Shown here piece by piece: positions 6,239 to 55,676 of a DNA stretch of 64,000 nt. The stretch comes from Peptococcia bacterium (GTDB lineage Bacteria > Bacillota > Peptococcia > DRI-13 > DTU073): positions 40 through 64,039 of the forward strand of contig JBMNJI010000001.1 in assembly GCA_050951585.1 (NCBI GenBank). Reading direction: 5' to 3'. The number at the start of each line of letters is the position of its first letter. The stretch's first letter is position 1. A program made the translations under genes and the position numbers. Under the pieces are notes generated by a model. The model searched no databases and had not been told where the DNA came from. It worked only from the letters and a program-made list of their open reading frames with translations.

Positions 6239-6303
6239 CAGCATGTCCGTGCTCATTTACCTGTGATATCTGTTATAATGGGGGTGAGGAGGGACCAGAG
6301 TAA

Positions 6304-20155: not shown

Positions 20156-21193
20156 ATGGCCCGTTGTTCGTACGGAGGTCAGGCAGTTATTGAAGGCGTG
20201 ATGATGCGCGGTAAAAGGAAGATGGCCGTAGCGGTGCGGCGCACCCCGGAGGAGATTGTATTTGACCTGCGGAATGTTATTTCGATAACCGAACGCTACC
20301 GCTTTTTAGGGTTGCCTTTTATTCGGGGCGTAGTTGTCATGATTGAATCGATGGTGGAAGGGATCAAAACCCTTACCTATTCGGCGAACCAGGTTGTGGA
20401 GGGCGAAGAGGAAGGAGAGACTTTGAGTCCATGGGAACTCCGGCTTTCCGTTGCCTTTGCCCTGATAGCGGGAACCGCCCTCTTTGCGCTTTTACCGGCA
20501 GGATTGGCGCATTTGGTGAAAGAGTATGTGCCGGGGTATTTTTTGCAGAATCTGCTGGAGGGAATTCTCCGGATTGTCATCTTTCTCGCTTATGTGGTGG
20601 CCATTGCGTTTATGGAGGATATTCAGCGGGTTTTTCAATACCATGGGGCGGAACACAAAACAATTCATGCTTATGAAGCGGGCGAAGAGCTGACCCCCGA
20701 AAATGCCCGGAAATATTCTACCTTGCATCCCCGTTGCGGAACCAGTTTTTTGCTTTTTGTGATGGTCATCAGTATTCTCGTTTTTTCGCTGACCGGCGAA
20801 ACGGGACTGTGGATGCGCCTTCTTTCCCGGATTCTTTTGCTACCGGTGGTAGCGGGCGTGTCTTATGAGTTTTTAAAGCTGACGGGGAAATATCAGCATA
20901 TCTGGATCATGCGGCTGTTCAGCAAGCCGGGGCTGTATTTACAAAAGCTTACCACCAGGCAGCCTGACGACAGTCAATTAGAGGTAGCCATCTTTGCCCT
21001 GCAAAAAGTGATGGCGGCGGAGCAGGAAGAAGCACTGGGCAAAGAAGCCGAAAGCAAAACGGAAAGCGGAGCAGAAGCAGAGAGGAAAGAAGCAGAGAGT
21101 ATCGCCGCAGACAGTATAGAGGCGAGCGGTGTTGCGGCAGGAAATATAGAGGCGGAGAGGACAGCGGTAGGAAGCTCTGCCGCGGAAGTTTAG
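20156..21193 (+). CDS. DUF1385-domain membrane protein (YqhQ-like) with a low-complexity acidic C-terminal tail
   Basis: MARCSYGGQAVIEGVMMRG...YHGAEHKTIH...HPRCGTSF is the DUF1385 signature. It is upstream of prfA, as in many Firmicutes. The last ~70 aa are an E/A/S-rich tail. Confidence 0.85.
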   Translation: MARCSYGGQAVIEGVMMRGKRKMAVAVRRTPEEIVFDLRNVISITERYRFLGLPFIRGVVVMIESMVEGIKTLTYSANQVVEGEEEGETLSPWELRLSVAFALIAGTALFALLPAGLAHLVKEYVPGYFLQNLLEGILRIVIFLAYVVAIAFMEDIQRVFQYHGAEHKTIHAYEAGEELTPENARKYSTLHPRCGTSFLLFVMVISILVFSLTGETGLWMRLLSRILLLPVVAGVSYEFLKLTGKYQHIWIMRLFSKPGLYLQKLTTRQPDDSQLEVAIFALQKVMAAEQEEALGKEAESKTESGAEAERKEAESIAADSIEASGVAAGNIEAERTAVGSSAAEV

Positions 21194-21229
21194 AAGGCGG
21201 AAGCGAAACGGAAGGTGAAGTGAGAACAG

Positions 21230-22300
21230 ATGTTGGAGAAACTACAACAGTTGGAAGATCGCTATGAAGAGCTGACCAAATTAATTAGCGATCCGGAGGT
21301 AATCAGTAATCAGAATGAATGGAAAAAGCATACCAAAGCGCATGCTGCTCTTGAAGATGTCGTGACGGTATATCGTGAATATAAACAGGTTATGCAAAGC
21401 ATCAAGGATAACGAGGAGCTCCTTGCCGAGAATCAGGACCCGGAGTTTAGCGAGCTGATTGAAGCCGACCTGGCGGAACTAAAAGAAAAGGAAGCCAGGC
21501 TGGAGGATGAGCTGAAGGTGCTTTTACTGCCGAAAGATCCTAACGATGAAAAGAACGTCATCATGGAAATCAGAGGCGGCACCGGGGGCGAGGAGGCGGC
21601 CTTATTTGCGGCCGACCTCTTGAAAATGTATACCCGTTATGCGGAAACAAGAGGCTGGAAGATGGAAATGCTCTCCGGCAATTATACGGACATCGGCGGC
21701 TTTAAGGAAGCCATCGTGATGATTGAAGGGAAGGGCGCATATAGCCGGTTGAAGTTTGAAAGCGGTGTGCATCGGGTGCAGCGGGTACCCACCACGGAAT
21801 CGGGTGGTCGTATTCATACTTCGGCCGCGACGGTGGCCGTCTTGCCTGAAGCCGAAGAGGTGGATATCGAGATTGATCCCAATGATATCCGTGTTGATAT
21901 CTTTTGTTCGAGCGGTCCGGGCGGACAATCGGTTAATACAACCCAGTCGGCCATTCGCGTGACCCATATTCCGACCGGCATGGTGGTTTCCTGTCAGGAT
22001 GAAAAATCACAGCACAAGAACAAGGATAAAGCGATGAAGGTTCTGCGCGCCCGTTTACTGGAGAAGGCCCAGGAGGAGCAAATGGGCGAGATGGCCAGCG
22101 TTCGTCGTACGATGGTCGGAAGCGGCGACCGGAGCGAACGAATTCGCACCTATAATTTCCCCCAGGGCAGAGTAACCGATCATCGGATCGGACTCACTTC
22201 TTATCGTCTGGAGGATGTACTGCAAGGCGAACTGGATGAATTTATCGATGCCTTGATCACGAGTGACCAGGCTGAACAATTAAAGAGGGTGGATTCCTAA
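21230..22300 (+). CDS. prfA: peptide chain release factor 1
   Basis: [21 protein letters not shown] (the PxT region) and the [12 protein letters not shown] (GGQ) motif are present. Confidence 0.97.
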
Positions 22301-23187
22301 TGACTGATCAGGAACGGCCGCATACCGGAGAAGAGGCTCTTCGGCGCGCGGCTTCCTTTTTCCGGGAGAAAGGGTGGACAGACCGGGCGGCTCAGCAGGA
22401 AGCAAGGCTGCTTTTGGCCAAAGTGTGGCGGAAGGATCTTTTGCATCTTTCGATCGGTCTAAAAGACCAGCCGGAGGAGACCGTCTGGGAGAATTTTTGG
22501 GCCTTGGTCAGGCGCAGAGGAAACCATGAACCGTTACATTACCTGCTGGGGGAAAAAGAATTTATGTCCCTCTCATTAAAGGTTTCTCCGGCAGTCTTGA
22601 TTCCGCGTTGGGATACGGAGGTACTGGCCGAAGAGGCCATTCGGCTGATGAAACCTTTGACACGGCCGCGCCTGCTTGATTTGGGAACAGGCAGTGGGGC
22701 CATTGCAGTAAGCCTCGCTTATTACCTGCCTGCGGCGGAGCTTGTAGCGGTTGATCTCTCTGCGGAGGCGCTGCGGATTGCCCGGGAAAATGCCCACAAG
22801 CTGGGGGTAGCCTCGCGGATCGATTTTCGGGAGGGGGATCTGTTTACCCCTCTGCGGGCGGAGGAATGCTTTGATTTAATTGTTTCCAATCCGCCTTACC
22901 TCACGGCGGACGAGATGCGTGCTTTGCCTCCGGACGTGCGGCAGGAACCGGCGCTGGCTTTGGCCGGCGGCGAGGACGGGTTGGATTTCTACCGGCGCAT
23001 TGCCCAAAAGGCGAAAAACCATTTAGGCCCGGACGGACATCTCTTGCTGGAGATAGGCTGGCAGCAAGGGGCGGCGGTCACGGCGCTGTTGGCCAAGCAG
23101 GGGCTTTCTCCGGTCAGAATACTCCGTGACCTGGAGGACAGAGACCGCGTGGTGGCATATTCGAAAGAAATTAATAGAAAAGGTTGA
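22300..23187 (+). CDS. prmC: release-factor glutamine N5-methyltransferase
   Basis: The start overlaps the prfA stop (TAATG). The SAM motif LDLGTGSGAI and the catalytic NPPY (IVSNPPYL) are present. Confidence 0.93.
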   Translation: MTDQERPHTGEEALRRAASFFREKGWTDRAAQQEARLLLAKVWRKDLLHLSIGLKDQPEETVWENFWALVRRRGNHEPLHYLLGEKEFMSLSLKVSPAVLIPRWDTEVLAEEAIRLMKPLTRPRLLDLGTGSGAIAVSLAYYLPAAELVAVDLSAEALRIARENAHKLGVASRIDFREGDLFTPLRAEECFDLIVSNPPYLTADEMRALPPDVRQEPALALAGGEDGLDFYRRIAQKAKNHLGPDGHLLLEIGWQQGAAVTALLAKQGLSPVRILRDLEDRDRVVAYSKEINRKG

Positions 23188-41243: not shown

Positions 41244-41570
41244 CTAATTTTCTCCATATAATAACACTCCATCGCGGGCAATAGTTCTCTCTATAGTCGG
41301 TAGATTTTTACGTTGGTGAAATACACTTGATTTATTAACAAGAATATCAATAGCCTTTTTTTGTTCCTGATAAATAGCTTTTCCGACTATCTGCATCGCT
41401 TCAACTGGGCGAGGACCATCATCAGGAATTACTATATATATATCATAATCACTTTCTTCTGAAGGGGTTCCATACGCGTATGACCCAAAAAGATAGATTG
41501 CTTCAGTTTTAATTGTATTAAGAATTATGCGTTTAATATTTTCCAATTCGTCAAGAATTTGCGCGTTCAT
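41244..41570 (-). CDS. nucleotidyltransferase-domain protein (MNT-type, antitoxin-like)
   Basis: 108 aa with the GSxxxG...SDYD motif (LFGSYAYGTPSEESDYDIYIVI). The local DNA is AT-rich, unlike its neighbours. Confidence 0.85.
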   Translation of the reverse strand: MNAQILDELENIKRIILNTIKTEAIYLFGSYAYGTPSEESDYDIYIVIPDDGPRPVEAMQIVGKAIYQEQKKAIDILVNKSSVFHQRKNLPTIERTIARDGVLLYGEN

Positions 41571-42524: not shown

Positions 42525-45407
42525 TTACCGTAAATTAAGAGGCATGGGGGCGGTGTAGATATCATCATACATATCGCCCCAAATTTTCACTGTCTTTAGC
42601 TTGCAGATGTAAAGGCCGTTTTTACCGGCGTATTCGACGCGAATGCGCACCGTATAATCGCCGTCTTTGTCATCGGGGCTGGTGTAATGCTTCCTTTCAT
42701 AGATGGTTTCGCCATCCTTAAAGGTATAACGGGTGGCCGGTAACATCCAGGTACATGGGCCTGTTTTGTCAGCGCGGCCGGAGACTTGCTCCATTTCGAC
42801 GGATTTGACAAATTTGTAGTTGGGATCATAGAATTCGGCGATCACCCGGGTCGGTCCTGCATAGGTGCCGCCAATGGGCCGGGCGGTATCCCCGAGACCG
42901 TCAGGCACTTTCGTTTCCCAGTCGTTTTGGTAGTTGGTTACTACGGTGACTTCAAAGCCGTAACCGGCCCGGGTAATCTCGTTAGGGTCAACCGGGGTGC
43001 GCAGTTTTTTGGAGAGCTCCTCGGCATAAGGGATGATTTCCCAGGAACCACGGCTTTCCCGGTCGCTTTTTTTCGGGTTTTTAGGGTCAGTGGGAATACC
43101 TTGTTTCGTATTAACGCTGACATCAAATTCGAGAGACTCGTTGTAGGTAACAGTAACGGGTTCCCAAATCGGATTATTATAGTCTGTCACTGTGCGCGTA
43201 ACAGTGCGTGTAATAGGATTACCGTTTTCATCTGTCCCGTCAGTCACCGTATCATGGACGGTTCTGGTATGATAGCCGGTAATAATGTGGTAAGTCACAT
43301 CCCAACTGGCGTGGTCTAAGGGTTCACTGCAACTCCGCTGAATATGTTTATTCACCGTAATATATCTTTCCATAAAGTTGTTCGCTCTGTTTTCATCGGG
43401 AATCAACTGGGCCGGATCGGCAATGACGGCAAGATTAACGATATCTTCGCGGTCGGGAGCACGCCAGGCAAAGGAAAGAGTCTTCGTTTCTCCCAAGGCA
43501 AAGGAGACTTTTTCTTCCCGAATTACTTTGCCGTCTTCCTGCCACTCGATTAAGGCTTCCGGGATCGCTTGCCCCGTATTATTCGCAATGACGGTTTCGA
43601 TATTTTGCACTTTTCCGGCGTCGGTAGGGGTAACGACCGCAAGGGAGATTACCGCCAGATCGTGCGTATTCTTGTTAAGCTCAAGGGCGGCAGTGTTATC
43701 CAGGCGGGGCTTGATTTCCGCGGTGATTTCCTCAGGATGCCCTTCGGGATTGATGGTCGCTTGATAGAGCAAACTGCCTGATGGAGGCACTTCAACCGTC
43801 CAAGGGGCAACAGTTTGTGTTTCACCGGCGGCGAGGGTAACGGTGCCGCCGGGAATAACGGCTCCGTCCGGGGTGGTAAGGATGATGGGGATATTTGTAT
43901 AGTCTTCCGTGGAGGTATTTTCAACCGTGAAGCGGAAAGTCACTTTTTCCCCTGGCGCATATTCTTTATCTTCGGCTGCTTCTAAAGAAACCGCTTTAAA
44001 GTTGAGCGGCTTTTCCGCTTGATAGGCATGCATGATGCCTTGTCCATCCGTAATCAAGAGGTAGGAGTCGGCGATAACCATCTCCGGAGAGACACTACCC
44101 GCATCGACCGGAAAGAGCTGGGCCGCTTCTTTGACTGCGTTTTCCTTTTTATCATAGAACCAGGGCACCGGCTCCAGTGTTTCGCCATCTAAGACCCAGG
44201 CCGTGCCATCATAGGCAAAGACAAAAACATAATCCTGCTCCGCTTCCGGTGACGGTTTCCAGTAGAGCAGATTGGATTTGAGGATGGAATTGAAGGGACG
44301 GACCCTGTGGGTAAGGCCTGTTTCTTTATCCACGGCGATCACTGCCCCCGGCCCGCCGTAGGAGTAGTTGTTGTAATGCTGTAGCGGCAGGTAAATGTAT
44401 TTACTGCCGATGACCGGCGACATGATGTTGTAGCTGTTAAGCGGGCGGTTGAAGTCGAAATCTCCGGGCTCCTCGGGGTTTACCCATACACGATTAATTT
44501 CGTGTTCGCTTTTATTTAATATTTATAAATGCAACCTCCTCTATCGGCTACATAGATGTAATTTTCTTCTGCTGCGGGGGAACCAGGAACGCCTAAGTTG
44601 ACGTTAGTGTTTATTAAGGTAAATGTATTTTTGTCAGGTAAATATCTGATAAGCAGTGATTCTTTGTTTTGTGTGTTTTCAGTTCCTACTATCATCCCAT
44701 TATGAAAGATGGGAGAGCCTGTTACTTCTCCATCCATATGTCCTCTAAAAGCAAGCTTTGCTTTGAAGCCTAAATCCTGAACAACAAAAAAGCCGTTATC
44801 AGCGTACTGCCCGGGCAACCCTGTAGCATCTCCATTTGCGGTTCCAATGGCTATATATGTCCGATGATTATGAATAAAGACAAAGGGACTGGCGGTTACA
44901 CGATATCTTTTTTGGTAACTATCACCGTTTTCGATCAGTTGTCAGAATTAACGGTTGGTCCCAAATAGGGTTGAATGTAACAGGATCTATTGCCCAGAGC
45001 CGATGGTCACGGGTAGCCTGATAGATTCGCGGTGCATGAGTAGTTTCCGCATAAGTCGGTGAAGAACCGGAAGGCAGCTCATGCTGGTTTACGGTGATAC
45101 GACCAAGGATATTGCCATCTTCCAGTGAGAGCTTTACTAGGTCTTTTCCGGCCTGAACGTAGATATGACCATCAACCACAATGGGTTGGCTATTCACTTT
45201 CCCTTGTAAATTACATGTCCAGGCTTCGTGAAAGGGCAGTCCTGTTTCCGTAAAACTGTCTTTAATTTGCCTGGAATTGTATTCATCAATCGCAAAGCGA
45301 GGTGCAGCAGCAAAAGCCGGCAATGTATTTGCCGGCAAGATGCTTGTTAGGATATAGAACATTATTAATATTAATGCCGATAGTTTATGGAATCGATGTA
45401 GCTTCAT
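42525..45407 (-). pseudogene. disrupted paralog of the 959-aa secreted beta-propeller/CARDB-like protein (two frameshifts)
   Basis: Three consecutive ORFs (44922-45407, 44516-44818, 42525-44423) are collinear with the N-terminal, middle and C-terminal parts of the intact gene at 48928-51807. There is one extra base near 44933 and one missing base near 44517-44525. The first and third ORFs share a frame and the middle one is shifted. Confidence 0.9.
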
Positions 45408-46234
45408 TAATTATTACCCCCTCGCAGGTAAGCAGCCCATTCTTCCGGTGTTAATAGTTTCCGATTATTCCCCGGCTTTTCGTTAATCTCTACTTTTCTT
45501 TCCCCCTCAATCCAGTCAACCTTAAAATCAAGAGCTTCAGACAAAGCCCGTAATGGCAGAAGGGTTCGGTTATTTTCAATAACCGGAGCGACGTCGGAAG
45601 TCTTTAATTCGTCGATTAAGCCTGTGATAACCCGAAAGTTATTTTCCCCGATACGAAAGACGATCGTTTTACCGGCACGGTCCGTAGCGGTTACGGTACG
45701 CTCTTCCTCATTCCATTTTACTTCTGCCTGGACATCCGGATGTTCGAAGATGGCCCGGAGCGGCACCATTGTCCGTCCTTGAATGATAATCGGCTTTTGA
45801 TCAGGGAAATCCACTTGCTTACCATTAATGAAAACACTTACTTCAGCAGCAATTGGGGCAGGTTGCACAGAATCTTCGGGGAATTGATAATTCCCACCAA
45901 CATGCTGGATTACCCCACCATATTTTGCCCATTTGGTATTTTCAATTGGGACGCCATTGACGTGGGTTATGCGACGAATATATGTCTGATTTGTAGTCCA
46001 TATACCTTTTAATGTTATTTCTATTGCTTCATCTACTGTTATATCAGGATAATTATATATTGCAAAGGTTCCTGTTCCTTTCATACCATTAGCATGCCAA
46101 AACTCCAGAGTATAATCTGCAATTTTATATCTTTCCACCACATCCTCATACCCGGGCAAGACAGCCCAAGTTCCTGTTGTTCCCGCTATTGTCAATATAA
46201 AGGCAAACAGTAAGCCTATTGCGGCTTTTTTCAT
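45407..46234 (-). CDS. secreted protein: unknown N-terminal domain plus copper amine oxidase N-terminal-like domain (paralog P1, full length)
   Basis: Signal peptide MKKAAIGLLFAFILTIAGTTGTWA. The C-terminal half (VFINGKQVDFPDQKPIIIQGRTMVPLRAIFE...VAPVIENNRTLLPLRALSEALDFKVDW) is the Cu_amine_oxidN1 fold repeat. Its stop overlaps the start of the downstream large (pseudo)gene. Confidence 0.85.
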   Translation of the reverse strand: MKKAAIGLLFAFILTIAGTTGTWAVLPGYEDVVERYKIADYTLEFWHANGMKGTGTFAIYNYPDITVDEAIEITLKGIWTTNQTYIRRITHVNGVPIENTKWAKYGGVIQHVGGNYQFPEDSVQPAPIAAEVSVFINGKQVDFPDQKPIIIQGRTMVPLRAIFEHPDVQAEVKWNEEERTVTATDRAGKTIVFRIGENNFRVITGLIDELKTSDVAPVIENNRTLLPLRALSEALDFKVDWIEGERKVEINEKPGNNRKLLTPEEWAAYLRGGNN

Positions 46235-46270
46235 TATCGAATACCCCCTTAAACTGATACTACTTCTACT

Positions 46271-46299
46271 ATTTTACAGAAATATAGTATTAATTACAA
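46271..46299 (-). promoter_or_regulatory. conserved sigma-A-type promoter of P1
   Basis: On the minus strand, TTGTAA, a 17-nt spacer, then TAAAAT. The 5' UTR and the RBS aaggggg are conserved. The same block recurs upstream of P2, P3 and P4. Confidence 0.55.
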
Positions 46300-46426
46300 C
46301 CTTTTCTAAAATCAGCCATCATGCATAAAACCTGCATATAACATATCTCTTAAACATATTTCACCCATCATCATGCCGTTTCATTAATTCTTCATGGGAC
46401 ATGAGTTTAGAGCCGTTGTAGGGCAT

Positions 46427-46486
46427 GCTGGTGACATGGATGGTATTTATACTCACGTGGTAATAAATTCTTTAGACCAGTATACG
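46427..46486 (+). pseudogene. ~55-nt relic of the DUF234 ATPase gene fused to the 3' end of P2
   Basis: ctggtgacatggatggtatttatactcacgtggtaataaattctttagaccagtatacgcc aligns with nt ~48497-48556 inside the ATPase gene (ccggcgacatggatggtatttatactcacgtggtaaaaaactctttagatcagtttacatcc). Confidence 0.8.
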
Positions 46487-47251
46487 CCCCGGCTTTTCGT
46501 TAATCTCTACTTTTCTTTCCCCCTCAATCCAGTCAACCTTAAAATCAAGAGCTTCAGACAAAGCCCGTAATGGCAGAAGGGTTCGGTTATTTTCAATAAC
46601 CGGAGCGACATCGGAAGTCTTTAATTCGTCGATTAAGCCTGTGATAACCCGAAAGTTATTTTCCCCGATACGAAAGACGATCGTTTTACCGGCACGGTCC
46701 GTAGCGGTTACGGTACGCTCTTCCTCATTCCATTTTACTTCTGCCTGGACATCCGGATGTTCGAAGATGGCCCGGAGCGGCACCATTGTCCGTCCTTGAA
46801 TGATAATCGGCTTTTGATCAGGGAACTCCACTTGCTTACCATTAATGAAAACACTTACTTCAGCAGCAATTGGGGCAGGTTGCACAGAATCTTCGGGGAA
46901 TTGATAATTCCCACCAACATGCTGGATTACCCCGCCATATTTTGCCCATTTGGTATTTTCAATGGGCACTCCATTGACGTGGGTTATGCGACGAATATCT
47001 TTTTGATTTGTAGTCCATATACCTTTTAATGTTATTTCTATTGCTTCATCTACTGTTATATCAGGATAATTATATATTGCAAAGGTTCCTGTTCCTTTCA
47101 TACCATTAGCATGCCAAAACTCCAAGGTATAATCTGCGATTTTATAACTTTCCACCACATCCTCATATCCGGGCAAGACAGCCCAAGTCCCCGTCGTTCC
47201 CGCTATTGTCAAAATAAAGGCAAACAGTAATCCTATTGCGGCTTTTTTCAT
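46472..47251 (-). CDS. copper amine oxidase N-domain secreted protein, paralog P2 (C-terminus replaced by fusion junction)
   Basis: Nearly identical to P1 until ...VEINEKPG. It then reads into the ATPase relic (RILV*) and loses the last ~20 aa found in P1 and P3. Confidence 0.7.
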   Translation of the reverse strand: MKKAAIGLLFAFILTIAGTTGTWAVLPGYEDVVESYKIADYTLEFWHANGMKGTGTFAIYNYPDITVDEAIEITLKGIWTTNQKDIRRITHVNGVPIENTKWAKYGGVIQHVGGNYQFPEDSVQPAPIAAEVSVFINGKQVEFPDQKPIIIQGRTMVPLRAIFEHPDVQAEVKWNEEERTVTATDRAGKTIVFRIGENNFRVITGLIDELKTSDVAPVIENNRTLLPLRALSEALDFKVDWIEGERKVEINEKPGRILV

Positions 47252-47510: not shown

Positions 47511-48920
47511 ATGTTTATCGGCAGAGAGAATGAGCTGAATTTTTTGGAGAACAAATACCTCTCCCAAGGTGGTCAACTTATTGTGATGTATGGCCGCCGC
47601 CGTGTTGGGAAGACCGAAACCTTGCGTAAATTTTGCGAAGGAAAAAGCCATGTCTTCTATTCCTGTACAGAATGTACAGACGAACAGCAACTCAAAGCCT
47701 TTAGTAGCAGGATGCTCATGGCGAATGTTCCGGCGGCCAAATATGTCCGGGAGTTTTCAGACTGGGAGCAGGCGCTTGCTTGTGTGTCTGAATTGCCCGC
47801 GGAAAGGAAAAAACTGCTGGTTATTGACGAGTTTCCCTATATGATAAAAAATAATGCTTCCATCCCTTCCATACTGCAAAAATTATGGGATGAGAAGCTA
47901 AAAGATGAAAATGTGATGATTATTCTCTGTGGTAGCGCCATGTCTTTTATCGAAAACGAAATCTTAGCAGAAAAGAACCCCTTATACGGAAGAGCTACCG
48001 GTATCCTAAAAATGAGCGAAATGAATTTCTATGAGGCGATTCAATTCTTCCCTCATTACTCATTATTGGATCAGATTCATGCTTATGCCATCTTAGGGGG
48101 CATCCCGCACTATTTAAAACAGTTTGACGATGAGCAATCACTGGAGGAAAATATCAAGGCCAATATTCTACAAAGAGGGAGCATCCTTTATTCCGAAGTG
48201 GAATTTCTGATGCGACAGGAGTTACGTGAGACCACTGTCTACAACACCATTATTGGAGCGGTTGCTTTAGGAAATACGAAGCTTAATGATATTTACCAAA
48301 AAACACAGATAGAAAAAAGCAAGCTGGCGGTGTATCTGAAAAACCTCATGTCTCTTGGGATTATCGAAAGGGAATTTCCCGTTTCCGATGGTCTTAAAAA
48401 TCAGGCAAATATCCAAAGAGGGTTATACCGGATTACCGATCACTTTTTCCGTTTTTGGTATGCTTTCGTTTTCCCCAATATCTCGGAGCTGGAAGCCGGC
48501 GACATGGATGGTATTTATACTCACGTGGTAAAAAACTCTTTAGATCAGTTTACATCCGGTATCTTTGAGTTGATTTGCCGCGAATATTTACGCCGTCAAA
48601 ACAGACAAGGAAAGCTTCCTTTTCGTTTTACCAAAATCGGGCGCTGGTGGAACAAGACAGATGAACTTGATATCATGGCAACTGATCTGGAGATGACTAA
48701 TTTTCTCTTAGGCGAATGTAAATTTAAAAATAGTGTCTTTAATTTGCATGATCTAAACAATATGTTATTCAAATTCAAGCCAGGTAAACAGACAGCTAAA
48801 GTCTATTACTATCTTTTTTCCAAAAGTGGCTTTAGCGAGGAGCTTATAAATGCTGTTGAAGGGCAAAAAAGTGGGTATAAAAATATTAGGCTGGTGACAT
48901 TGGAGCAATTGATGGAATAA
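47511..48920 (+). CDS. P-loop ATPase, archaeal-type ATPase domain plus DUF234-like C-terminus
   Basis: 469 aa. MFIGRENELNFLENKY...LIVMYGRRRVGKTETL (Walker A), LLVIDEFPYM (Walker B) and the C-terminal ...IGRWWNKTDELDIMA... region are typical of the Arch_ATPase/DUF234 family. Confidence 0.85.
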   Translation: MFIGRENELNFLENKYLSQGGQLIVMYGRRRVGKTETLRKFCEGKSHVFYSCTECTDEQQLKAFSSRMLMANVPAAKYVREFSDWEQALACVSELPAERKKLLVIDEFPYMIKNNASIPSILQKLWDEKLKDENVMIILCGSAMSFIENEILAEKNPLYGRATGILKMSEMNFYEAIQFFPHYSLLDQIHAYAILGGIPHYLKQFDDEQSLEENIKANILQRGSILYSEVEFLMRQELRETTVYNTIIGAVALGNTKLNDIYQKTQIEKSKLAVYLKNLMSLGIIEREFPVSDGLKNQANIQRGLYRITDHFFRFWYAFVFPNISELEAGDMDGIYTHVVKNSLDQFTSGIFELICREYLRRQNRQGKLPFRFTKIGRWWNKTDELDIMATDLEMTNFLLGECKFKNSVFNLHDLNNMLFKFKPGKQTAKVYYYLFSKSGFSEELINAVEGQKSGYKNIRLVTLEQLME

Positions 48921-48927
48921 CCTCGTT

Positions 48928-51807
48928 TTACCGTAAATCAAGGGGCAGAGGTGCGGTGTAGATATCATCATACATATCGCCCCAGATTTTCACCGTCTTT
49001 AGCTTGCAGATGTAAAGGCCGTTTTTACCGGCGTATTCGACGCGAATGCGCACCGTATAATCGCCGTCTTTGTCGTCGGGGCTGGTGTAATGCTTCCTTT
49101 CATAGATGGTTTCGCCATCCTTAAAGGTATAACGGGTGGCCGGTAACATCCAGGTGCACTCGCCCGTTTTGTCAGCGCGGCCGGAGACTTGCTCCATTTC
49201 GACGGATTTGACAAATTTGTAGTTGGGATCATAGAATTCGGCAATCACCCGGGTCGGTCCTTCATAGGTGCCGCCAATGGGCCGGGCGGTATCCTCGAGC
49301 CCGTCAGGCACTTTCGTTTCCCAGTCGTTTTGGTAGTTGGTTACTACGGTGACTTCAAAGCCGTAACCGGCTCGGGTAATCTCGTTAGGGTCAACCGGGG
49401 TGCGCAGTTTTTTGGAGAGCTCCTCGGCATAAGGGATGATTTCCCAGGAACCACGGCTTTCCCGGTCGCTTTTTTTCGGGTTTTTAGGGTCAGTGGGAAT
49501 ACCTTGTTTCGTATTAACGCTGACATCAAATTCGAGAGACTCGTTGTAGGTAACAGTAACGGGTTCCCAAATGGGATTATTATAGTCCGTAACCTGGCGC
49601 GACACCCTTTGGGTAATCGGGGCGCCGTTTTCATCCGTTCCCACAGTTACCGTATCATAGACTGTTCTGGTATGATAGCCGGTAATAATGTGGTAAGTCA
49701 CATCCCAACTGGCTCTGTCTAAGGGTTCTTTGCAACTCCGCTCGACATGTTTATTCACCGTAATATATCTTTCCATAAAGTTGTTCGCTCTGTTTTCATC
49801 GGGAATCAGCTGGGCCGGATCGGCAATGACGGCTAGATTGACGATATCTTCACGGTCGGGAGCACGCCAGGCAAAGGAAAGAGTTTTGCTTTCCCCCAAG
49901 GCAAAGGAGACTTTTTCTTCCCGAATTACTTTGCCGTCTTCCTGCCACTCGATTAAGGCTTCCGGGATCGCTTGCCCCGTATTATTCGCAATGACGGTTT
50001 CGATATTTTGCACTTTTCCGGCGTCGGTAGGGGAAACTACCGCAAGGGAGATTACCGCCAGATCGTGCGTATTTTTGTTAAGCTCGAGTGCGGCCGTGTT
50101 ATCGAGGCGGGGCTTGATTTCCGCGGTGATTTCCTCAGGATGTCCTTCGGGATTGATGGTCGCTTGATAGAGCAGACTGCCTGATGGAGGCACTTCAACC
50201 GTCCAGGGGGATACAGTTTGTGTTTCACCCGCGGCGAGGTCAACGGTGCCGCCGGGAATAACGGCTCCGTCCGGGGTGGTAAGGATAATGGGGATATTTG
50301 TATAGTCTTCCGTGGAGGTATTTTCAACCGTGAAGCGGAAAGTCACTTTTTCTCCCGGGGCATATTCTCTATCTTCGGCTGCTTCTAAAGAAACCGCTTT
50401 AAAGTTGAGCGGCTTTTCTGCTTTATAGGCATGCATGATGCCTTGTCCATCCGTAATCAGGAGGTAGGAGTCGGCGATAACCATCTCCGGAGAGACACTG
50501 CCCGCATCGACCGGAAAGAGCTGGGCCGCTTCTTTGACGACATTTTCTTTTTTATCATAGAACCAGGGCACCGGCTCCAGTGTTTCGCCATCTAAGACCC
50601 AGGCTGTGCCATCATAGGCAAAGACAAAAACATAATCCTGCTCCGCTTCCGGTGACGGCTTCCAGTAGAGCAGATTGGATTTGAGGATGGAATTGAAGGG
50701 GTGGACCCTGTGGGTAAGGCCTGTTTCTTTATCTACGGCAATCACCGCCCCCGGTCCGCCGTTGGAGTAGTTGTTGTAATGCTGTAGCGGCAGGTAAATA
50801 TATTTACTGCCGATCACCGGTGACATGAGGTTGTAGCTGTTAAGCGGGCGGTTGAAGTCAAAATCTCCGGGCTCCTCGGGGTTTTTCCACACACGATTAA
50901 TTTCGTGTTCGTTTTTATTTATATATTTATAAATACAACTTCCCCTATCTGCTACATAGATATAGTTTCCTTCTGCTGCGGGAGAACCTGGAACACCCAA
51001 ATTGACGTTAGTATTTATTAGAGCGAATTTACTTTCTTCGAGTAAATATCTAATAAGTAATGACTCCTTATTTTGACTGTTTTCCGTCCCAATAATCATT
51101 CCATTATGAAAGATAGGCGATCCAGTTACTTCTCCATCCATTTTTTGATTAAGAATACTTACTGCTCGAAATCCTAAATCCTGAATAATAAAGAAACCGT
51201 TATCAGCGTACTGCCCGGGCAACCCAGTAGCATCACCATTTGCGGTTCCTATGGCTATATATGTCCGATGATTATGAATAAAGACAAAGGGACTGGCGGT
51301 TACACGATATCTTTTTTTATAGCTGTCACCGTTCTCGTCAGTAGACAGAATTAACGGTTGGTCCCAAATAGGGGTAAAAGTAGATGGGTCTATTGCCCAG
51401 AGCCGGTGGTCACGGGTAGCCTGATAAATCCGCGGGGCATGAGTGGTTTCTGCATATGTTGGCGATGAACCGGAAGGTAGCTCATGCTGGTTTACGGTGA
51501 TGCGGCCGATAATTTTGCCGTCTTCCAGTGAGAGCTTTACTAGGTCTTTTCCTGCTTGAACGTAGATATATCCATCAACCACAATGGGTTGGCTATTTAC
51601 CTTCCCCTTTAAATCACAGGTCCAGGCTTCGTAAAAGGGCAGCCCTGTTTCCGTAAAACTGTCTTTAATTTGCCTGGAATTGTATTCATCAATCGCAAAG
51701 CGGGGCGCAGCAGCAAAAACCGGCAAGGTATTTGCCGGCAAGATGCTTGTCAGGATATATGCAAATAATATCAATACCGATACGATATGAATTCTACATA
51801 ACCTCAT
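48928..51807 (-). CDS. large secreted protein: signal peptide, PQQ/BamB-like beta-propeller, two CARDB-like Ig domains, unassigned ~330-aa C-terminal domain (intact copy)
   Basis: 959 aa. The N-terminal signal ends ...PVFAAAP. Propeller-like repeats are present (KVNSQPIVVDGYIYVQAGKDLVKLSLEDGKIIG, GSPIFHNGMIIGT, NYIYVADRGSCIYKY, LLITDGQGIMHAY). CARDB-like segments are present (VTFRFTVENTSTEDYTNIPIIL...; DLAVISLAVVSPTDAGKVQNIETVIANNTGQAIPEALIEW...LSFAWRAP...IADPAQLIPDENRANN). I cannot place the C-terminal domain, which ends ...GLYICKLKTVKIWGDMYDDIYTAP. Confidence 0.85.
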   Translation of the reverse strand: MRLCRIHIVSVLILFAYILTSILPANTLPVFAAAPRFAIDEYNSRQIKDSFTETGLPFYEAWTCDLKGKVNSQPIVVDGYIYVQAGKDLVKLSLEDGKIIGRITVNQHELPSGSSPTYAETTHAPRIYQATRDHRLWAIDPSTFTPIWDQPLILSTDENGDSYKKRYRVTASPFVFIHNHRTYIAIGTANGDATGLPGQYADNGFFIIQDLGFRAVSILNQKMDGEVTGSPIFHNGMIIGTENSQNKESLLIRYLLEESKFALINTNVNLGVPGSPAAEGNYIYVADRGSCIYKYINKNEHEINRVWKNPEEPGDFDFNRPLNSYNLMSPVIGSKYIYLPLQHYNNYSNGGPGAVIAVDKETGLTHRVHPFNSILKSNLLYWKPSPEAEQDYVFVFAYDGTAWVLDGETLEPVPWFYDKKENVVKEAAQLFPVDAGSVSPEMVIADSYLLITDGQGIMHAYKAEKPLNFKAVSLEAAEDREYAPGEKVTFRFTVENTSTEDYTNIPIILTTPDGAVIPGGTVDLAAGETQTVSPWTVEVPPSGSLLYQATINPEGHPEEITAEIKPRLDNTAALELNKNTHDLAVISLAVVSPTDAGKVQNIETVIANNTGQAIPEALIEWQEDGKVIREEKVSFALGESKTLSFAWRAPDREDIVNLAVIADPAQLIPDENRANNFMERYITVNKHVERSCKEPLDRASWDVTYHIITGYHTRTVYDTVTVGTDENGAPITQRVSRQVTDYNNPIWEPVTVTYNESLEFDVSVNTKQGIPTDPKNPKKSDRESRGSWEIIPYAEELSKKLRTPVDPNEITRAGYGFEVTVVTNYQNDWETKVPDGLEDTARPIGGTYEGPTRVIAEFYDPNYKFVKSVEMEQVSGRADKTGECTWMLPATRYTFKDGETIYERKHYTSPDDKDGDYTVRIRVEYAGKNGLYICKLKTVKIWGDMYDDIYTAPLPLDLR

Positions 51808-52634
51808 TAGGCATTATCTCCTTTCAGATAAACGGCCCATTCTTCCGGTGTTAGTAGTTTCCGTTTATTCCCCGGCTGCTCGTTAATTTCTACTTTTCTT
51901 TCCCCCTCAATCCAGTCAACCTTAAAATCAAGAGCTTCAGACAAAGCCCGTAAAGGCAAAAGGGTTCGGTTGTTTTCAATAACCGGAGCCACGTCGGAGG
52001 TCTTTAAGTCGTCAATTAAGCCTGTGATTACCCGAAAGTTGTTTTCCCCGATACGAAAGACAATCGTTTTCCCGGCACGGTCCGTCGCGGTTACGGTACG
52101 CTCTTCCTCATTCCATTTTACTTCCGCCTGCACATCCGGATGTTCGAAGATGGCCCGGAGCGGAACCATTGTTCGTCCTTGAATGATGATAGGCTTTTGA
52201 TCAGGAAATTCCACTTGCTTACCATTGATGAAAACAGTAACCTCCGTGGCAATTGGGTCAGGTTGTACAGGATCGTCGGGGAATTGATAGTTCCCGCCCA
52301 CATGCTGGATAACGCCACCGTATTTTGCCCATTTGGTATTTTCAATGGGCACCCCATTGACGTGGGTTATGCGACGAATATCTTTTTGATTTGTAGTCCA
52401 TAAGCCTTTTAACACTATTTCAATTGCTTCATCAACTGTTAATCCAGGATATTCATATATTGCAAAGGTGCCAGTTCCTTTCATTCCATTTGCATGCCAA
52501 AACTCCAAGGTATAATCTGCTATTTTCTCGTAGGAAATTGAATTCTCATACCCAGGCAAGACAGCCCAAGTCTCGGCCGTTCCCGTTATTGTCAAAATAA
52601 AGGCAAACAGTAAGCCTATTGCGGCTTTTTTCAT
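51807..52634 (-). CDS. copper amine oxidase N-domain secreted protein, paralog P3 (full length, coupled to the intact large gene)
   Basis: 275 aa with the same architecture as P1. Its stop and the start of the 959-aa gene overlap as TAATG on the minus strand. Confidence 0.88.
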   Translation of the reverse strand: MKKAAIGLLFAFILTITGTAETWAVLPGYENSISYEKIADYTLEFWHANGMKGTGTFAIYEYPGLTVDEAIEIVLKGLWTTNQKDIRRITHVNGVPIENTKWAKYGGVIQHVGGNYQFPDDPVQPDPIATEVTVFINGKQVEFPDQKPIIIQGRTMVPLRAIFEHPDVQAEVKWNEEERTVTATDRAGKTIVFRIGENNFRVITGLIDDLKTSDVAPVIENNRTLLPLRALSEALDFKVDWIEGERKVEINEQPGNKRKLLTPEEWAVYLKGDNA

Positions 52635-52670
52635 TATGGAATACCCCCTTAAACTGATACTACTTCTACT

Positions 52671-52699
52671 ATTTTACAGAAATATAGTAGTAATTACAA
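52671..52699 (-). promoter_or_regulatory. conserved promoter of P3 and the large gene
   Basis: On the minus strand, TTGTAA, a 17-nt spacer, then TAAAAT, with the conserved UTR and RBS. Confidence 0.55.
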
Positions 52700-52829
52700 C
52701 CTTTTCTAAAATTAGCCATCCTGCAAAAACATTTCCCTTAAACATATTTGCTACCTCATCATCCCGTTTCATTAATCCTTCATTAGTCATGGGTTTTGAG
52801 TCAGTTCCTTAACGACAGGTAAATAATAT

Positions 52830-53120
52830 AATTTTATCAAATCAAGATTATACTAATCACGATTTGATAAGGGCAAAGGAGGCCGGTTTTAGTTGTTCTC
52901 CGGCTTTTCGTTAATCTCTACTTTTCTTTCCCCCTCAATCCAGTCAACCTTAAAATCAAGAGCTTCAGACAAAGCAATTTTATCAAATCAAGATTATACT
53001 AATCACGATTTGATAAGGGCAAAGGAGGCCGGTTTTAGTTGTTCTCCGGCTTTTCGTTAATCTCTACTTTCCTTTCCCCTCAATCCAGTCAACCTTAAAA
53101 TTAAGAGCTTCAGACAAAGC
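52830..53120. repeat. tandem duplication (146 nt + 145 nt) of a chimeric junction: ATPase-gene leader fused to the 3' end of a P gene
   Basis: The unit is aattttatcaaatcaagattatactaatcacgatttgataagggcaaaggaggccggttttagttgttctccggcttttcgttaatctctac...cagacaaagc. It occurs at 52830-52975 and again at 52976-53120 with two small differences. Confidence 0.9.
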
Positions 53121-53807
53121 CCGTAATGGCAGAAGGGTTCGGTTGTTCTCAATAACCGGAGCAACATCGGAGGTCTTTAATTCCTCAATTAAGCCTGTGA
53201 TAACCCGAAAGTTATTTTCCCCGATACGAAAGACGATCGTTTTACCGGCACGATCCGTAGCAGTTACGGTACGCTCTTCCTCATTCCATTTTACTTCCGC
53301 CTGGACATCCGGATGTTCGAAGATGGCCCGGAGCGGCACCATTGTCCGTCCTTGAATGATAATCGGCTTTTGATCAGGAAATTCCACTTGCTTACCATTA
53401 ATGAAAACACTTACTTCAGCAGCAATTGGGACGGGTTCCACAGAATCTTCGGGGAATTGATAATTTCCACCAATATGCTGGATTACACCGCCATATTTTG
53501 CCCATTTGGTGTTCTCTATCGGTTCTCCGTTGACGTGGGTTATGCGGCGAATGTATGTCTCGTTCATTGTCCAACACCCTTTTAACGTTTGTTCGATTAC
53601 TTCATCATTTGTATAACGTGTACTTTTATATATTGGAAAAATTCCTGTTACTTTCATGCCATTAGCATACCAAAACTCCAAGGTATAGTCTGCAATTTTA
53701 TAACTTTCCACCACATCCTCATACCCGGGCAAGACAGCCCAAGTTCCTGTTGTTCCCGCTATTGTCAAAATAAAGGCAAACAGTAAGCCTATTGCGGCTT
53801 TCTTCAT
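53064..53807 (-). CDS. copper amine oxidase N-domain secreted protein, paralog P4 (divergent N-domain, C-terminal frameshift)
   Basis: 247 aa. The segment KVTGIFPIYKSTRYTNDEVIEQTLKGCWTMNETY differs from P1-P3. A 1-nt deletion in the run ctacttt(t)c changes the end to ...WIEGKGK*. Confidence 0.7.
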   Translation of the reverse strand: MKKAAIGLLFAFILTIAGTTGTWAVLPGYEDVVESYKIADYTLEFWYANGMKVTGIFPIYKSTRYTNDEVIEQTLKGCWTMNETYIRRITHVNGEPIENTKWAKYGGVIQHIGGNYQFPEDSVEPVPIAAEVSVFINGKQVEFPDQKPIIIQGRTMVPLRAIFEHPDVQAEVKWNEEERTVTATDRAGKTIVFRIGENNFRVITGLIEELKTSDVAPVIENNRTLLPLRALSEALNFKVDWIEGKGK

Positions 53808-53872: not shown

Positions 53873-54054
53873 CCTTTTCTAAAATTAGCCATCACACATT
53901 GAGCGATATATCAGCACCTACTCAGATGAACTGAAAGCAAACGGATATGAATTGCTTAAAGGTAAAAAACTACAGGCATTTATAGCCGCGTATGATGCCA
54001 CATTTGCGACCGACATTAATGTCGGTCACAAAATCCGTTCAAACTATTATAAAT

Positions 54055-54231
54055 CCAGTATGTGCCTGTTCCTGTAATACCATTAGCATACAAGAATTCA
54101 ACAGTATAATCAGCTATTTTATATTGCTTCACCATATCCTCATATCCGGGCAAGACAGCCCAAGTTTCTGCCGTTCCCGCTATTGTTAAAATAAAGGCAA
54201 AAAGTAATCCTATTGCGGCTTTTTTCCCCAA
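54055..54231 (-). pseudogene. 5' fragment of a fifth P paralog (P5)
   Basis: It encodes only (L)GKKAAIGLLFAFILTIAGTAETWAVLPGYEDMVKQYKIADYTVEFLYANGITGTGTY, after which homology stops. ATG is replaced by TTG and the conserved promoter block is absent. Confidence 0.75.
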
Positions 54232-54326
54232 CTTGACTAATATTGGAAGTTTGCTTATAATAAAAATAAAAATGTGATTTTTACACGCAAACTATGTATA
54301 ATAATGTGATTTTGGAGGCGGGGCGT

Positions 54327-55676
54327 ATGGAAAGACTGATTATGAAAAGCCTGCTGGATTGGAAAAAGTCTAATTATCGAAAACCGCTTATTTTAAAAGG
54401 TGTTCGTCAGGTTGGTAAGACATGGCTTCTCAAGGAGTTTGCCAAACATCACTATGGCAACATTGCTTATTTCAACTTTGATGAGCACCCGGAATATAAG
54501 CAGTTTTTTGAAAGTACCAAGGATGTGGAGCGCATTCTGCAAAACTTAATGATGGCCAGCGGGGAAGTGATCAAGCGCGACAGTCCGGAGGATACGCTCA
54601 TTGTTTTTGATGAAATCCAGGAATGCCCCAACGCGCTCAACACGCTGAAATATTTTTGTGAGAACACTCCCCATTATCATGTGGCTTGTGCTGGCTCTCT
54701 CTTAGGGATAGCCTTATCGAAGCCTGCCTCCTTCCCGGTTGGCAAAGTGGACTTCCTGGAAATCCTGCCCATGACCTTTACCGAATTTTTATTGGCCAAT
54801 GGTGACGAAAATCTTGTTGCTTACCTGGACAGCCTCGAAAAAATTGAGCCGATCCCGGAGGCGTTTTTTAATCCCTTGTCTGAAAAGCTGAAAATGTATT
54901 TTGTGACCGGTGGGATGCCAGAATCCGTTCGCTCCTGGACACAAGAGCGCAATGTTGAATTGATGCAGCAGGTCTTATTAAATATCCTCGGAGCGTATGA
55001 GCGTGATTTTGCCAAACACCCCGAGCCCAAGGACTTTCCGAAAATATCGCTGATCTGGAAGTCTATTCCTTCCCAATTGGCCAGAGAAAATAAGAAGTTT
55101 ATCTATAAAGCGGTAAAAGAAGGTGCCAGGGCTAGAGAATACGAAGATGCCCTGCAATGGCTTTGCGATGCCAACCTGACTTATAAAATCTACCGCAGTA
55201 CTGCGCCGGGCCTGCCTCTTTCAGCCTACGATGATTTATCTGCTTTTAAACTATACATGGCGGATGTGGGACTGTTACGCAGGCTGTCCCTCCTGGCACC
55301 TTCAGCCTTTGGCGAGGGCAACAGACTGTTTGTGGAGTTTAAAGGGGCCTTAAGTGAAAACTATGTCCTGCAGGCGTTGCAGCACCAGTTTGAAGCCACG
55401 CCCCGTTATTGGACGATGGAAAATCCAAGGTATGAAGTGGACTTTCTTATTCAAAGGGAAAACGATATTTTACCGGTAGAGGTTAAGGCAGAAAGTAATG
55501 TTGAAAGTCGGAGCTTAAAAAAATACAAGGAAAAATACGGGGATAAGGTAAAGTTGCGCATTCGTTTTTCCTTAAATAACCTGCGCATTGATGAAGATGT
55601 GTTAAACATCCCGCTGTTCATGGCTGATTATGCCGACAAGCTTATCGGGATGGCGCTGGAACAGTTACAAGTTTAA
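54327..55676 (+). CDS. P-loop ATPase, AAA_14 plus DUF4143 family
   Basis: MERLIMKSLLDWKKSNYRKPLILKGVRQVGKTWLLKEF (Walker A) and LIVFDEIQECP (Walker B) are present. The C-terminal ...YEVDFLIQRENDILPVEVKAE... is the restriction-endonuclease-like DUF4143 end. ATG 54327 follows ggagg. Confidence 0.85.
   Translation: MERLIMKSLLDWKKSNYRKPLILKGVRQVGKTWLLKEFAKHHYGNIAYFNFDEHPEYKQFFESTKDVERILQNLMMASGEVIKRDSPEDTLIVFDEIQECPNALNTLKYFCENTPHYHVACAGSLLGIALSKPASFPVGKVDFLEILPMTFTEFLLANGDENLVAYLDSLEKIEPIPEAFFNPLSEKLKMYFVTGGMPESVRSWTQERNVELMQQVLLNILGAYERDFAKHPEPKDFPKISLIWKSIPSQLARENKKFIYKAVKEGARAREYEDALQWLCDANLTYKIYRSTAPGLPLSAYDDLSAFKLYMADVGLLRRLSLLAPSAFGEGNRLFVEFKGALSENYVLQALQHQFEATPRYWTMENPRYEVDFLIQRENDILPVEVKAESNVESRSLKKYKEKYGDKVKLRIRFSLNNLRIDEDVLNIPLFMADYADKLIGMALEQLQV

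Follow-up and report, generated by a model that had tools for sequence, protein, structure and literature searches.

In textbooks, Gram-positive bacteria display proteins on their surface through sortase, SLH domains or lipid anchors. The conjugation adhesin of plasmid pLS20, TIEpLS20, uses none of these (PMC8092201). Efficient conjugation in liquid depends on TIEpLS20, which has no sortase signal; its C-terminal region of ~250 residues has been proposed to hold the protein on the cell (PMC8092201). Here we analyze a gene pair from a 64-kb stretch of Peptococcia DNA (the window), which encodes a small protein with a Cu_amine_oxidN1 domain and a large protein that ends, like TIEpLS20, in a PXO2_28_C domain. 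We propose, with moderate confidence, that the pair forms a conserved cassette whose two products are co-translated and assemble into a surface complex independent of sortase, serving as a display or adhesion module. The proposal rests on direct analysis of gene structure, domain content, pairing, co-variation, terminal-domain homology and purifying selection; from these we infer secretion, physical binding, the cell-facing end and the adhesion function.

The terminal PXO2_28_C domain of ~140 residues is common to the window protein and to the TIEpLS20 (pLS20 p34) and pXO2-28-29-30 fusion adhesins of Bacillus, Listeria and Enterococcus. All are large, modular proteins with a Sec leader and without LPXTG, SLH or lipobox, and the wider family of the window protein shares with the TIEpLS20-type adhesins a genomic tie to CpaF/VirB11-type ATPase modules. 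TIE (thioester-isopeptide-ester) adhesins are defined by a thioester domain with a Cys-Gln bond at the N-terminus and by CnaA/CnaB isopeptide domains after it. In contrast to these adhesins, the window protein has no thioester or CnaB domain and carries a beta-propeller and CARDB instead, together with an extra hairpin-and-helix segment of ~125 residues before PXO2_28_C. A Cu_amine_oxidN1 partner is encoded here, whereas none is annotated beside the adhesin gene in the plasmid stretches retrieved. The window cassette is also chromosomal, with no conjugation genes nearby.

Other described systems share single features with the pair. Relatives of the pair lie in Tad/Flp (type IVc) pilus loci, but the window lacks those genes, and we know of no described Tad component that corresponds to either protein. 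In OlpC of Clostridium thermocellum and ScaG of Acetivibrio cellulolyticus, as proposed for the pair, a Cu_amine_oxidN1-type domain belongs to a surface protein that holds another protein through a dedicated peptide/domain interaction, and in the cell-surface protein OlpC it precedes the cohesin (PMC3413522). In those proteins a single chain carries both the domain and the cohesin, with a dockerin as ligand, whereas here we propose a tail element of ~15 residues with the propeller as ligand; the two systems have no sequence relationship beyond PF07833. Propellers of the PQQ-like type are generally protein- or ligand-binding scaffolds. PQQ_2 scores above the gathering threshold in the window protein, yet the BamB equivalogs stay far under their cutoffs. 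Unlike BamB, the window protein comes from a Gram-positive-type spore former without the outer-membrane beta-barrel assembly (BAM) context, has its propeller fused to Ig-like domains and PXO2_28_C, and lacks a lipobox.

The window protein is not categorically new, because every domain family in it is catalogued and PXO2_28_C is already in Pfam. Our literature searches found nothing on a Cu_amine_oxidN1 partner of PXO2_28_C proteins or on head/tail co-variation, and nothing that connects the TIE conjugation adhesins with the Tad-like clusters of Clostridia and Paenibacillus. Searches on DUF4320 and on Cu_amine_oxidN1 together with Tad pili likewise found nothing.

A co-varying gene pair

The features are listed in Table 1. 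The stop codon of the small gene and the start codon of the large gene share one base (TAATG), and a Shine-Dalgarno (SD)-like AAAGGAGA lies ~10 nucleotides 5' of the large-gene ATG, within the 3' end of the small gene. A stop/start overlap of 1–16 nucleotides is also found in the relatives L001, L002, L004 and L006, and gene calls indicate that overlap or near-abutment is kept in relatives with 36–63% identity. Therefore, the overlap is not due to chance. Inspected by eye, both products begin with Sec-type leaders, MRLCRIHIVSVLILFAYILTSILPANTLPVFA followed by AA and MKKAAIGLLFAFILTITGTAETWA followed by VLP. Neither protein contains an LPXTG-like motif or a lipobox (regular-expression search), an SLH domain (Pfam) or a hydrophobic C-terminus. 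An earlier note on this DNA, made from the sequence, had described the 275- and 959-residue pair with its TAATG overlap, the signal peptides and the lack of LPXTG, SLH and lipobox. The list of open reading frames (ORFs), the sequence and the domain searches bear out each of these statements.

Table 1. Features of the cassette and its second copy (positions in the window)
Feature	Position	Strand	Basis or detail
Small partner gene, 275 aa	51807..52634	(-)	ORF list, Pfam, partner-family alignments A3 and A5
Large protein gene, 959 aa	48928..51807	(-)	ORF list, Pfam, alignment A1 of 37 homologues
Coupling junction	51805..51824	(-)	SD-like AAAGGAGA 51824-51817, TAA 51809-51807, ATG 51807-51805; read from sequence
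N-domain of small protein, about residues 34-113, motif ITHVNGxPIExTKWAKYGG	52296..52535	(-)	Profile search, AlphaFold
Cu_amine_oxidN1 domain, residues 135-250	51885..52232	(-)	Pfam PF07833
C-terminal tail KRKLLTPEEWAVYLKGDNA, motif [RK][RK]L[LM]xxxxW	51810..51866	(-)	Motif distribution across loci
PQQ_2/BamB-like beta-propeller region, about residues 36-470	50398..51702	(-)	PF13360, PDB profile matches
Two Ig-like domains, residues 478-541 and 581-678	49774..50376	(-)	Pfam, PDB profiles
First part of C-terminal module, residues 686-810	49378..49752	(-)	AlphaFold, invariant columns
PXO2_28_C domain, residues ~811-949	48961..49377	(-)	PF27438, hhalign, local HMM
Upstream tail-less small paralogue, 247 aa, own promoter-like site and ribosome-binding site	53064..53807	(-)	ORF list, Pfam
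Second copy of three-gene unit	42525..47251	(-)	90.7% nucleotide identity
Tail-less small gene of second copy	46472-47251	(-)	Matches 53064-53807
Tailed small gene of second copy	45407-46234	(-)	
Large gene of second copy	42525-45407	(-)	+1 at 44934, -1 at 44518

We surveyed loci encoding the C-terminal module in one genome per species (GTDB); 51 of them have enough upstream sequence to be evaluated. The module is encoded at 70 loci, on both chromosomes and plasmids, in Peptococcia and Peptococcaceae, Thermincola, metagenome-assembled genomes (MAGs) of other Clostridia and many Paenibacillus. An ORF with Cu_amine_oxidN1 lies directly upstream on the same strand at 46 of the 51 evaluable loci, a co-occurrence that upholds the earlier reading of the two genes as one module and shows the unit to be conserved. 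The partner is also present in the metagenomic and plasmid loci L001, L002, L004 and L006–L010. Since these loci have unrelated neighbors, the pair moves as a unit.

The C-terminus of the partner changes with the head of the large protein. All 15 partners at propeller loci end in a tail of 23–39 residues with the motif [RK][RK]L[LM]xxxxW, which occurs at none of the 48 non-propeller loci. At 47 non-propeller loci the partner has a C-terminal domain of 105–160 residues in place of the tail; L008 is the one odd non-propeller case in this comparison. The upstream tail-less small paralogues also lack the tail motif. Such co-variation is the pattern that a physical complex would predict, and it points to a probable contact between the C-terminus of the partner and the N-terminal head of the large protein. 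The N-domain of the small protein is found in only 6 of the 15 propeller loci and is therefore regarded as accessory.

The Cu_amine_oxidN1 domain of the small protein, recognized earlier, is confirmed by Pfam (PF07833, 132.8 bits versus a cutoff of 24.2, E = 6e-39), and PF07833 also exceeds the cutoff in the three other full-length small-gene copies of the window. The domain preceding it could not be assigned in the earlier note, and profile and structure searches still place it nowhere. Pfam has no match for residues 1–134 and NCBIfam none for the N-domain, while AlphaFold predicts a compact beta-beta-alpha-beta fold (pLDDT ~90 over ~80 residues) for which Foldseek gave no PDB match better than E = 0.25. 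As a 112-residue query for homologues, the N-domain returned only 4 short fragments. An exhaustive profile search of 1.84 billion proteins found a tiny family of 25 representatives at E ≤ 1e-3, nearly all with the order leader, N-domain, Cu_amine_oxidN1 and tail. Two giant proteins matched by this profile, P0073 and P0077, look compositional and were disregarded.

The earlier note took Cu_amine_oxidN1 to supply the attachment of the complex to the cell envelope. Literature backing for such an anchor role is only indirect. PF07833 proteins occur in the surfaceome of Desulfotomaculum reducens and in wall hydrolases (PMC4137172). In a superoxide dismutase of Paenibacillus, Cu_amine_oxidN1 is the dimerization domain (PMC10432803). 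Elsewhere in the window, the region 60658–63185 (+) encodes a 204-residue protein of two Cu_amine_oxidN1 domains, followed by two LytR_cpsA_psr genes, and a LytR_cpsA_psr gene is near the L002 cassette too. LytR_cpsA_psr proteins are wall-polymer ligases, and their proximity may bear on a wall-polymer ligand for Cu_amine_oxidN1.

The beta-propeller-like region proposed earlier for the large protein is supported by a PQQ_2 (PF13360) match above the Pfam cutoff at residues 60–183 (36.7 bits versus 27.6). Its PDB profile matches are quinoprotein dehydrogenase propellers and designed propeller blades (E from 8e-5 to 0.02); the propeller matches as a whole are weak and span just 2–3 blades. Several motifs of the region, RIYQATRDHRLWA, YADNGFF and GEVTGSP, are strongly conserved in A1. 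The BamB equivalogs are not reached (TIGR03300, 15.5 bits versus a cutoff of 285.2; PRK11138, 12.1 versus 423), and an NCBIfam search of the pair added nothing to the Pfam assignments. The earlier note had also read two CARDB-like Ig domains. The second is indeed CARDB (PF07705, residues 581–678, 39.6 bits versus 22.7), but the first (residues 478–541) is DUF11/NEW3-like and scores below the Pfam cutoff. In profile comparison with the PDB, the Ig-like domains match the CARDB-type structures 2l0d, 3idu and 2kl6 (E from 4e-10 to 5e-8). The PDB search with A1 returned only CARDB structures and the weak propeller matches, and single-sequence PDB searches with both proteins gave nothing useful. No thioester domain (TED) or CnaB was matched in Pfam, and no TIE structure appeared in the PDB sequence and profile searches.

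The terminal domain and its ties to pilus and conjugation genes

The large protein ends in ...KTVKIWGDMYDDIYTAPLPLDLR. The local Pfam library matched nothing past residue ~680, and the C-terminus had been described earlier as an unplaceable stretch of ~330 residues. The stretch proves to be ~275 residues long (686–959), and its last ~140 residues belong to PF27438 (PXO2_28_C); the rest is still unplaced. PF27438 is newer than the Pfam library searched here, and the assignment draws on precomputed annotation, hhalign and a local hidden Markov model (HMM). The precomputed annotation places PF27438.1 on the window protein (P0001) and on most homologues; in the gene tables the family name is flagged as faint or weak on some relatives and bears no such flag on P0031. 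Aligned by hhalign to the C-termini of TIEpLS20 and pXO2-28, the C-terminal alignment matched over residues ~811–949 with a probability of 94.3% and E = 9.7e-8. Longer TIE segments matched the same region (91.6%) and nothing upstream. Therefore, the last ~140 residues alone are PXO2_28_C, and residues 686–810 are specific to the family of the window protein rather than common to the TIE adhesins. The earlier note had named assignment of its unplaced domains to well-characterized families as a reason to abandon its reading; PF27438 is not such a family, because it has no established function.

The AlphaFold model of residues 686–959, built from an alignment of 42 sequences, has a pLDDT of 91.1. 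Residues 686–810 form a long beta-hairpin with a variable tip, missing in some homologues of A1, and then two helices (strands 13–39 and 45–80 and helices 94–116 of the 274-residue model). Their motifs are NTKQG and SDRESRGSWEIIPYA, the latter located on the two helices. PXO2_28_C is the terminal beta-sandwich, with motifs TRAGYGFE, DWETKVP, ERKHYT, DGxY and GxMYDD. Foldseek found no significant match for the model in the PDB (best E = 4.7e-3, TM score ≤ 0.26) and a best E of 1e-2 in the viral BFVD library; 4QRK ('toast-rack') was absent among the 50 best PDB matches listed. Lytic polysaccharide monooxygenase (LPMO), carbohydrate-binding module (CBM) and lysenin-like folds were considered and rejected, as they show only a generic beta-sandwich resemblance. 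Cys692 is near-invariant and Gln768 invariant among homologues. A thioester between them was rejected, as the fold is not TED-like and the position of the Cys drifts in three homologues.

The plasmid relatives of PXO2_28_C are numerous. Relatives of the C-terminal segment from pXO2 occur on 329 plasmids, with 241 in Bacillus, 45 in Listeria and 31 in Enterococcus, and 251 of the 329 are typed conjugative. These relatives include the B. cereus "fusion protein (includes pXO2-28-29-30)" and, on B. subtilis plasmids of the pLS20 type, the protein with the thioester domain. Four conjugative plasmids were inspected, and in each 1–3 small genes lie between the PXO2_28_C adhesin and a CpaF/VirB11 ATPase with two proteins of ~270 residues. 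Our local C-terminal HMM also matches the C-terminus of an unannotated pXO2 ORF, 20898–22436 (NC_007323), which adjoins the ATPase gene of that plasmid belonging to the type II secretion, type IV pilus and type IV secretion (T2SS/T4P/T4SS) family. The surrounding region of pXO2 (L011, 20875–25261) is a fragmented pXO2-28/29/30 adhesin stretch, without genes in the plasmid table, which omits pseudogenes. An intact version of 1426 residues is annotated on B. cereus plasmids (L085).

The pair itself is found within or between Tad-like clusters at L007 (a Paenibacillus plasmid), L008 (Thermoanaerobacterium pMU3262), L009 and L010 (Clostridia contigs). These clusters contain a CpaF/TadA-type ATPase, two platform-like proteins, small pilin-like genes, DUF4320, CpaB/RcpC, CpaE-like ATPases and an A24 prepilin peptidase. 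At L008, L009 and L010/L044 the pair sits between two separate Tad-like clusters, both of which include a CpaF-type ATPase gene and a DUF4320 gene. On the Paenibacillus plasmids, a gene of ~5 kb for an fn3-repeat protein precedes the pair. An ATPase lies within 10 kb at no fewer than 14 of the 42 non-propeller loci; the count is a minimum, as the fn3 gene often displaces the ATPase past the fetched flank.

These neighborhoods raise the possibility that the large protein is an adhesin associated with the tip or shaft of a Gram-positive Tad-like (type IVc) pilus, or with a conjugation apparatus, whose genes lie elsewhere in the genome. PXO2_28_C would then bind pilins or the CpaF-driven machine, and the small protein would be an assembly chaperone or adaptor, not a wall anchor. 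Besides the conjugative plasmids of Bacillus, Listeria and Enterococcus and the Tad-like clusters of Paenibacillus, Thermoanaerobacterium and Clostridia, two further loci favor this explanation. L001, which is propeller-type with a large protein 63% identical to ours and the same three-gene layout, lies directly 5' of genes for an ATPase, a platform protein, DUF4320 and CpaB. L006 has TubZ, relaxase-like, VirD4-like and A24 prepilin peptidase genes as neighbors. However, local HMMs for the ATPase and DUF4320, which detect both at many related loci, match nothing in the 64-kb window, where no other Tad gene is present either, and none of the 9 propeller-type species-representative loci has an ATPase within 10 kb, so the pilus link may not apply to the propeller subfamily. 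The module also occurs in many unrelated chromosomal contexts, and we found no literature on such an accessory. Taken together, we consider a pilus or conjugation accessory a possible but rather unlikely identity for the window protein.

A secreted enzyme is less probable still. The propeller or the C-terminal module would be catalytic, for example on polysaccharide or the cell wall, with the Ig-like domains and the small protein only positioning it. By sequence, the N-terminal region is closest to PQQ_2 and quinoprotein dehydrogenase propellers, the C-terminal module is rich in invariant polar residues (E, D, R, K, Q, T), and Cu_amine_oxidN1 is frequent in wall hydrolases (PMC4137172). Nevertheless, the propeller matches are weak and partial and fall far short of the BamB equivalogs, genes for PQQ synthesis or redox partners are adjacent at none of the loci examined, and the fold similarity of the C-terminal module to LPMOs and CBMs falls short of significance (E > 0.004).

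The duplicated unit and its surroundings

A second copy of the cassette is located on the same strand, with 90.7% nucleotide identity between 42525–46412 and 48928–52800. The earlier note had taken the gene pair as the unit of duplication. The repeat, however, comprises three genes, in the order tail-less small gene, tailed small gene and large gene. The same layout is found in L001 and in L012, a Peptococcia MAG with a C-terminal module 72% identical to ours. A unique DUF234 ATPase gene separates the two units of the window, and at L012 a DUF234 ATPase gene (5491–6912) is placed with the tail-less small genes on one side and the tailed pair on the other.

The second copy, described earlier as broken, is present. 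Its damage amounts to two compensating frameshifts, and the ratio of nonsynonymous to synonymous substitution rates (dN/dS) between the large-gene copies is 0.15. There are 237 substitutions between the broken and the intact large gene, and only 3 indels, namely an in-frame +3 (codon 17), a +1 (codon 157) and a -1 (codon 296). Within the out-of-frame stretch dN/dS is 0.12. Among the four full-length small-gene copies it is 0.10–0.22, and 0.13–0.22 for the tail-less paralogue of unit 2 against the others. Purifying selection acted on both units through nearly all of their divergence. Since the two frameshifts compensate each other, they may be either recent events or sequencing errors.

Several smaller rearrangements accompany the duplication. 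A fifth small-gene copy, truncated to about the first 60–70 codons (LGKKAAIGLLFAFILTIAGTAETWAVLPGYEDMVKQYKIADYTVEFLYANG...), is located at 54016–54231 (-). It ends at a perfect palindrome, gaccgacattaatgtcggtc, just 5' of the DUF4143/AAA_14 ATPase gene, and looks like a rearrangement scar. The last ~80 nucleotides of the small gene are tandemly repeated at 52896–52975 and 53046–53125 (-), within the spacer that separates the tail-less small gene from the tailed one, and are 98.8–100% identical to their copy-1 counterparts. The early stop of the 247-residue tail-less gene is due to a 1-nucleotide deletion within a G-run. The two small genes of unit 1 are mutually close (dS 0.106), whereas their dS relative to the positional counterparts in unit 2 is 0.27–0.42. 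Such closeness points to gene conversion in unit 1 or to a recent re-duplication there.

The gene order in the window is a murA fragment, spoIID, a lone nucleotidyltransferase, an M23 peptidase, unit 1, the DUF234 ATPase, unit 2, the truncated small-gene fragment, the DUF4143 ATPase, spoIIID, mbl and flagellar rod genes. The cassette is thus an insertion into a conserved sporulation neighborhood of a Peptococcia-like spore former. The ATPase genes that flank or separate the units are DUF234/ATPase_2 (47511–48920, +) and AAA_14/DUF4143 (54294–55676, +). The Polbeta-type nucleotidyltransferase gene between spoIID and the M23 peptidase gene (41244–41570, -) has no partner gene beside it in the ORF list; at L001, an NTase/NTase_sub_bind pair follows the Tad-like cluster. 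A role in sporulation was considered in view of the neighbors spoIID, the M23 peptidase and spoIIID. It was rejected because homologous cassettes elsewhere have unrelated neighbors.

That the cassette is a decaying plasmid-derived remnant, functionless in this host, might be suggested by the two frameshifts, the truncated fragment and re-duplicated 3' end, the flanking DUF234 and DUF4143 ATPases inside the spoIID...spoIIID neighborhood and the relatives on plasmids, but it is very improbable given the low dN/dS of all copies, including the frame-shifted stretch, the full-length ORFs, SD and promoter-like sites of the intact copy, and frameshifts that compensate each other and may be recent or artifactual.

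Proposed arrangement and its significance

We propose the following arrangement for the surface complex. Sec would export both products. The large subunit would be of the modular display or adhesin type, with a ligand-binding propeller head, two Ig-like spacers and a conserved base with PXO2_28_C. The small subunit would be its dedicated adaptor, whose C-terminal peptide (KRKLLTPEEW...) may dock on the propeller, while Cu_amine_oxidN1 may hold the complex at the wall or oligomerize it. The tail-less paralogues possibly share in this wall-holding or oligomerization. PXO2_28_C would derive from the adhesins of conjugation and Tad-like pilus systems in Firmicutes, and it probably attaches the complex at a second point, either to such an apparatus or to the envelope. 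The cassette of the window is an orphan chromosomal insertion between sporulation genes, duplicated in tandem.

Several points weigh against this arrangement. Binding of the small to the large protein is argued from adjacency and co-variation, and shared ancestry confounds the co-variation, because few clades are involved. In the literature we found no wall-binding activity of Cu_amine_oxidN1, and the one solved example dimerizes (PMC10432803). By analogy with TIEpLS20, PXO2_28_C would be the cell-proximal end; a partner bound to the propeller would then be distal, which conflicts with a simple anchor role. The highly conserved polar residues of the C-terminal module could equally fit an enzyme or a specific receptor site. 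Finally, the lack of Tad genes in the window and of a nearby ATPase at the propeller-type loci also counts against it.

A broader suggestion, which we advance only tentatively and regard as rather doubtful, is that the Cu_amine_oxidN1 partner and PXO2_28_C together constitute an undescribed, sortase-independent way in which Firmicutes mount large adhesins on the surface or on CpaF-driven filaments of the Tad-like or conjugative kind. The C-terminal peptide or domain of the partner would be a class-specific 'plug' for the N-terminal head of the adhesin.

The switching of the partner C-terminus with the adhesin head makes two interactions testable, that of the tail peptide with the propeller and that of PXO2_28_C with the envelope or pilus, and the loci supply natural variants for testing both. 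The analysis also links PXO2_28_C, a domain of unknown function that was catalogued only recently, with Tad-like and conjugation machinery in both Bacilli and Clostridia. Should the two proteins prove to be an ordinary secreted pair, the result is useful annotation only. If the 'plug' reading is true, the same logic would account for the attachment of TIEpLS20-type adhesins.

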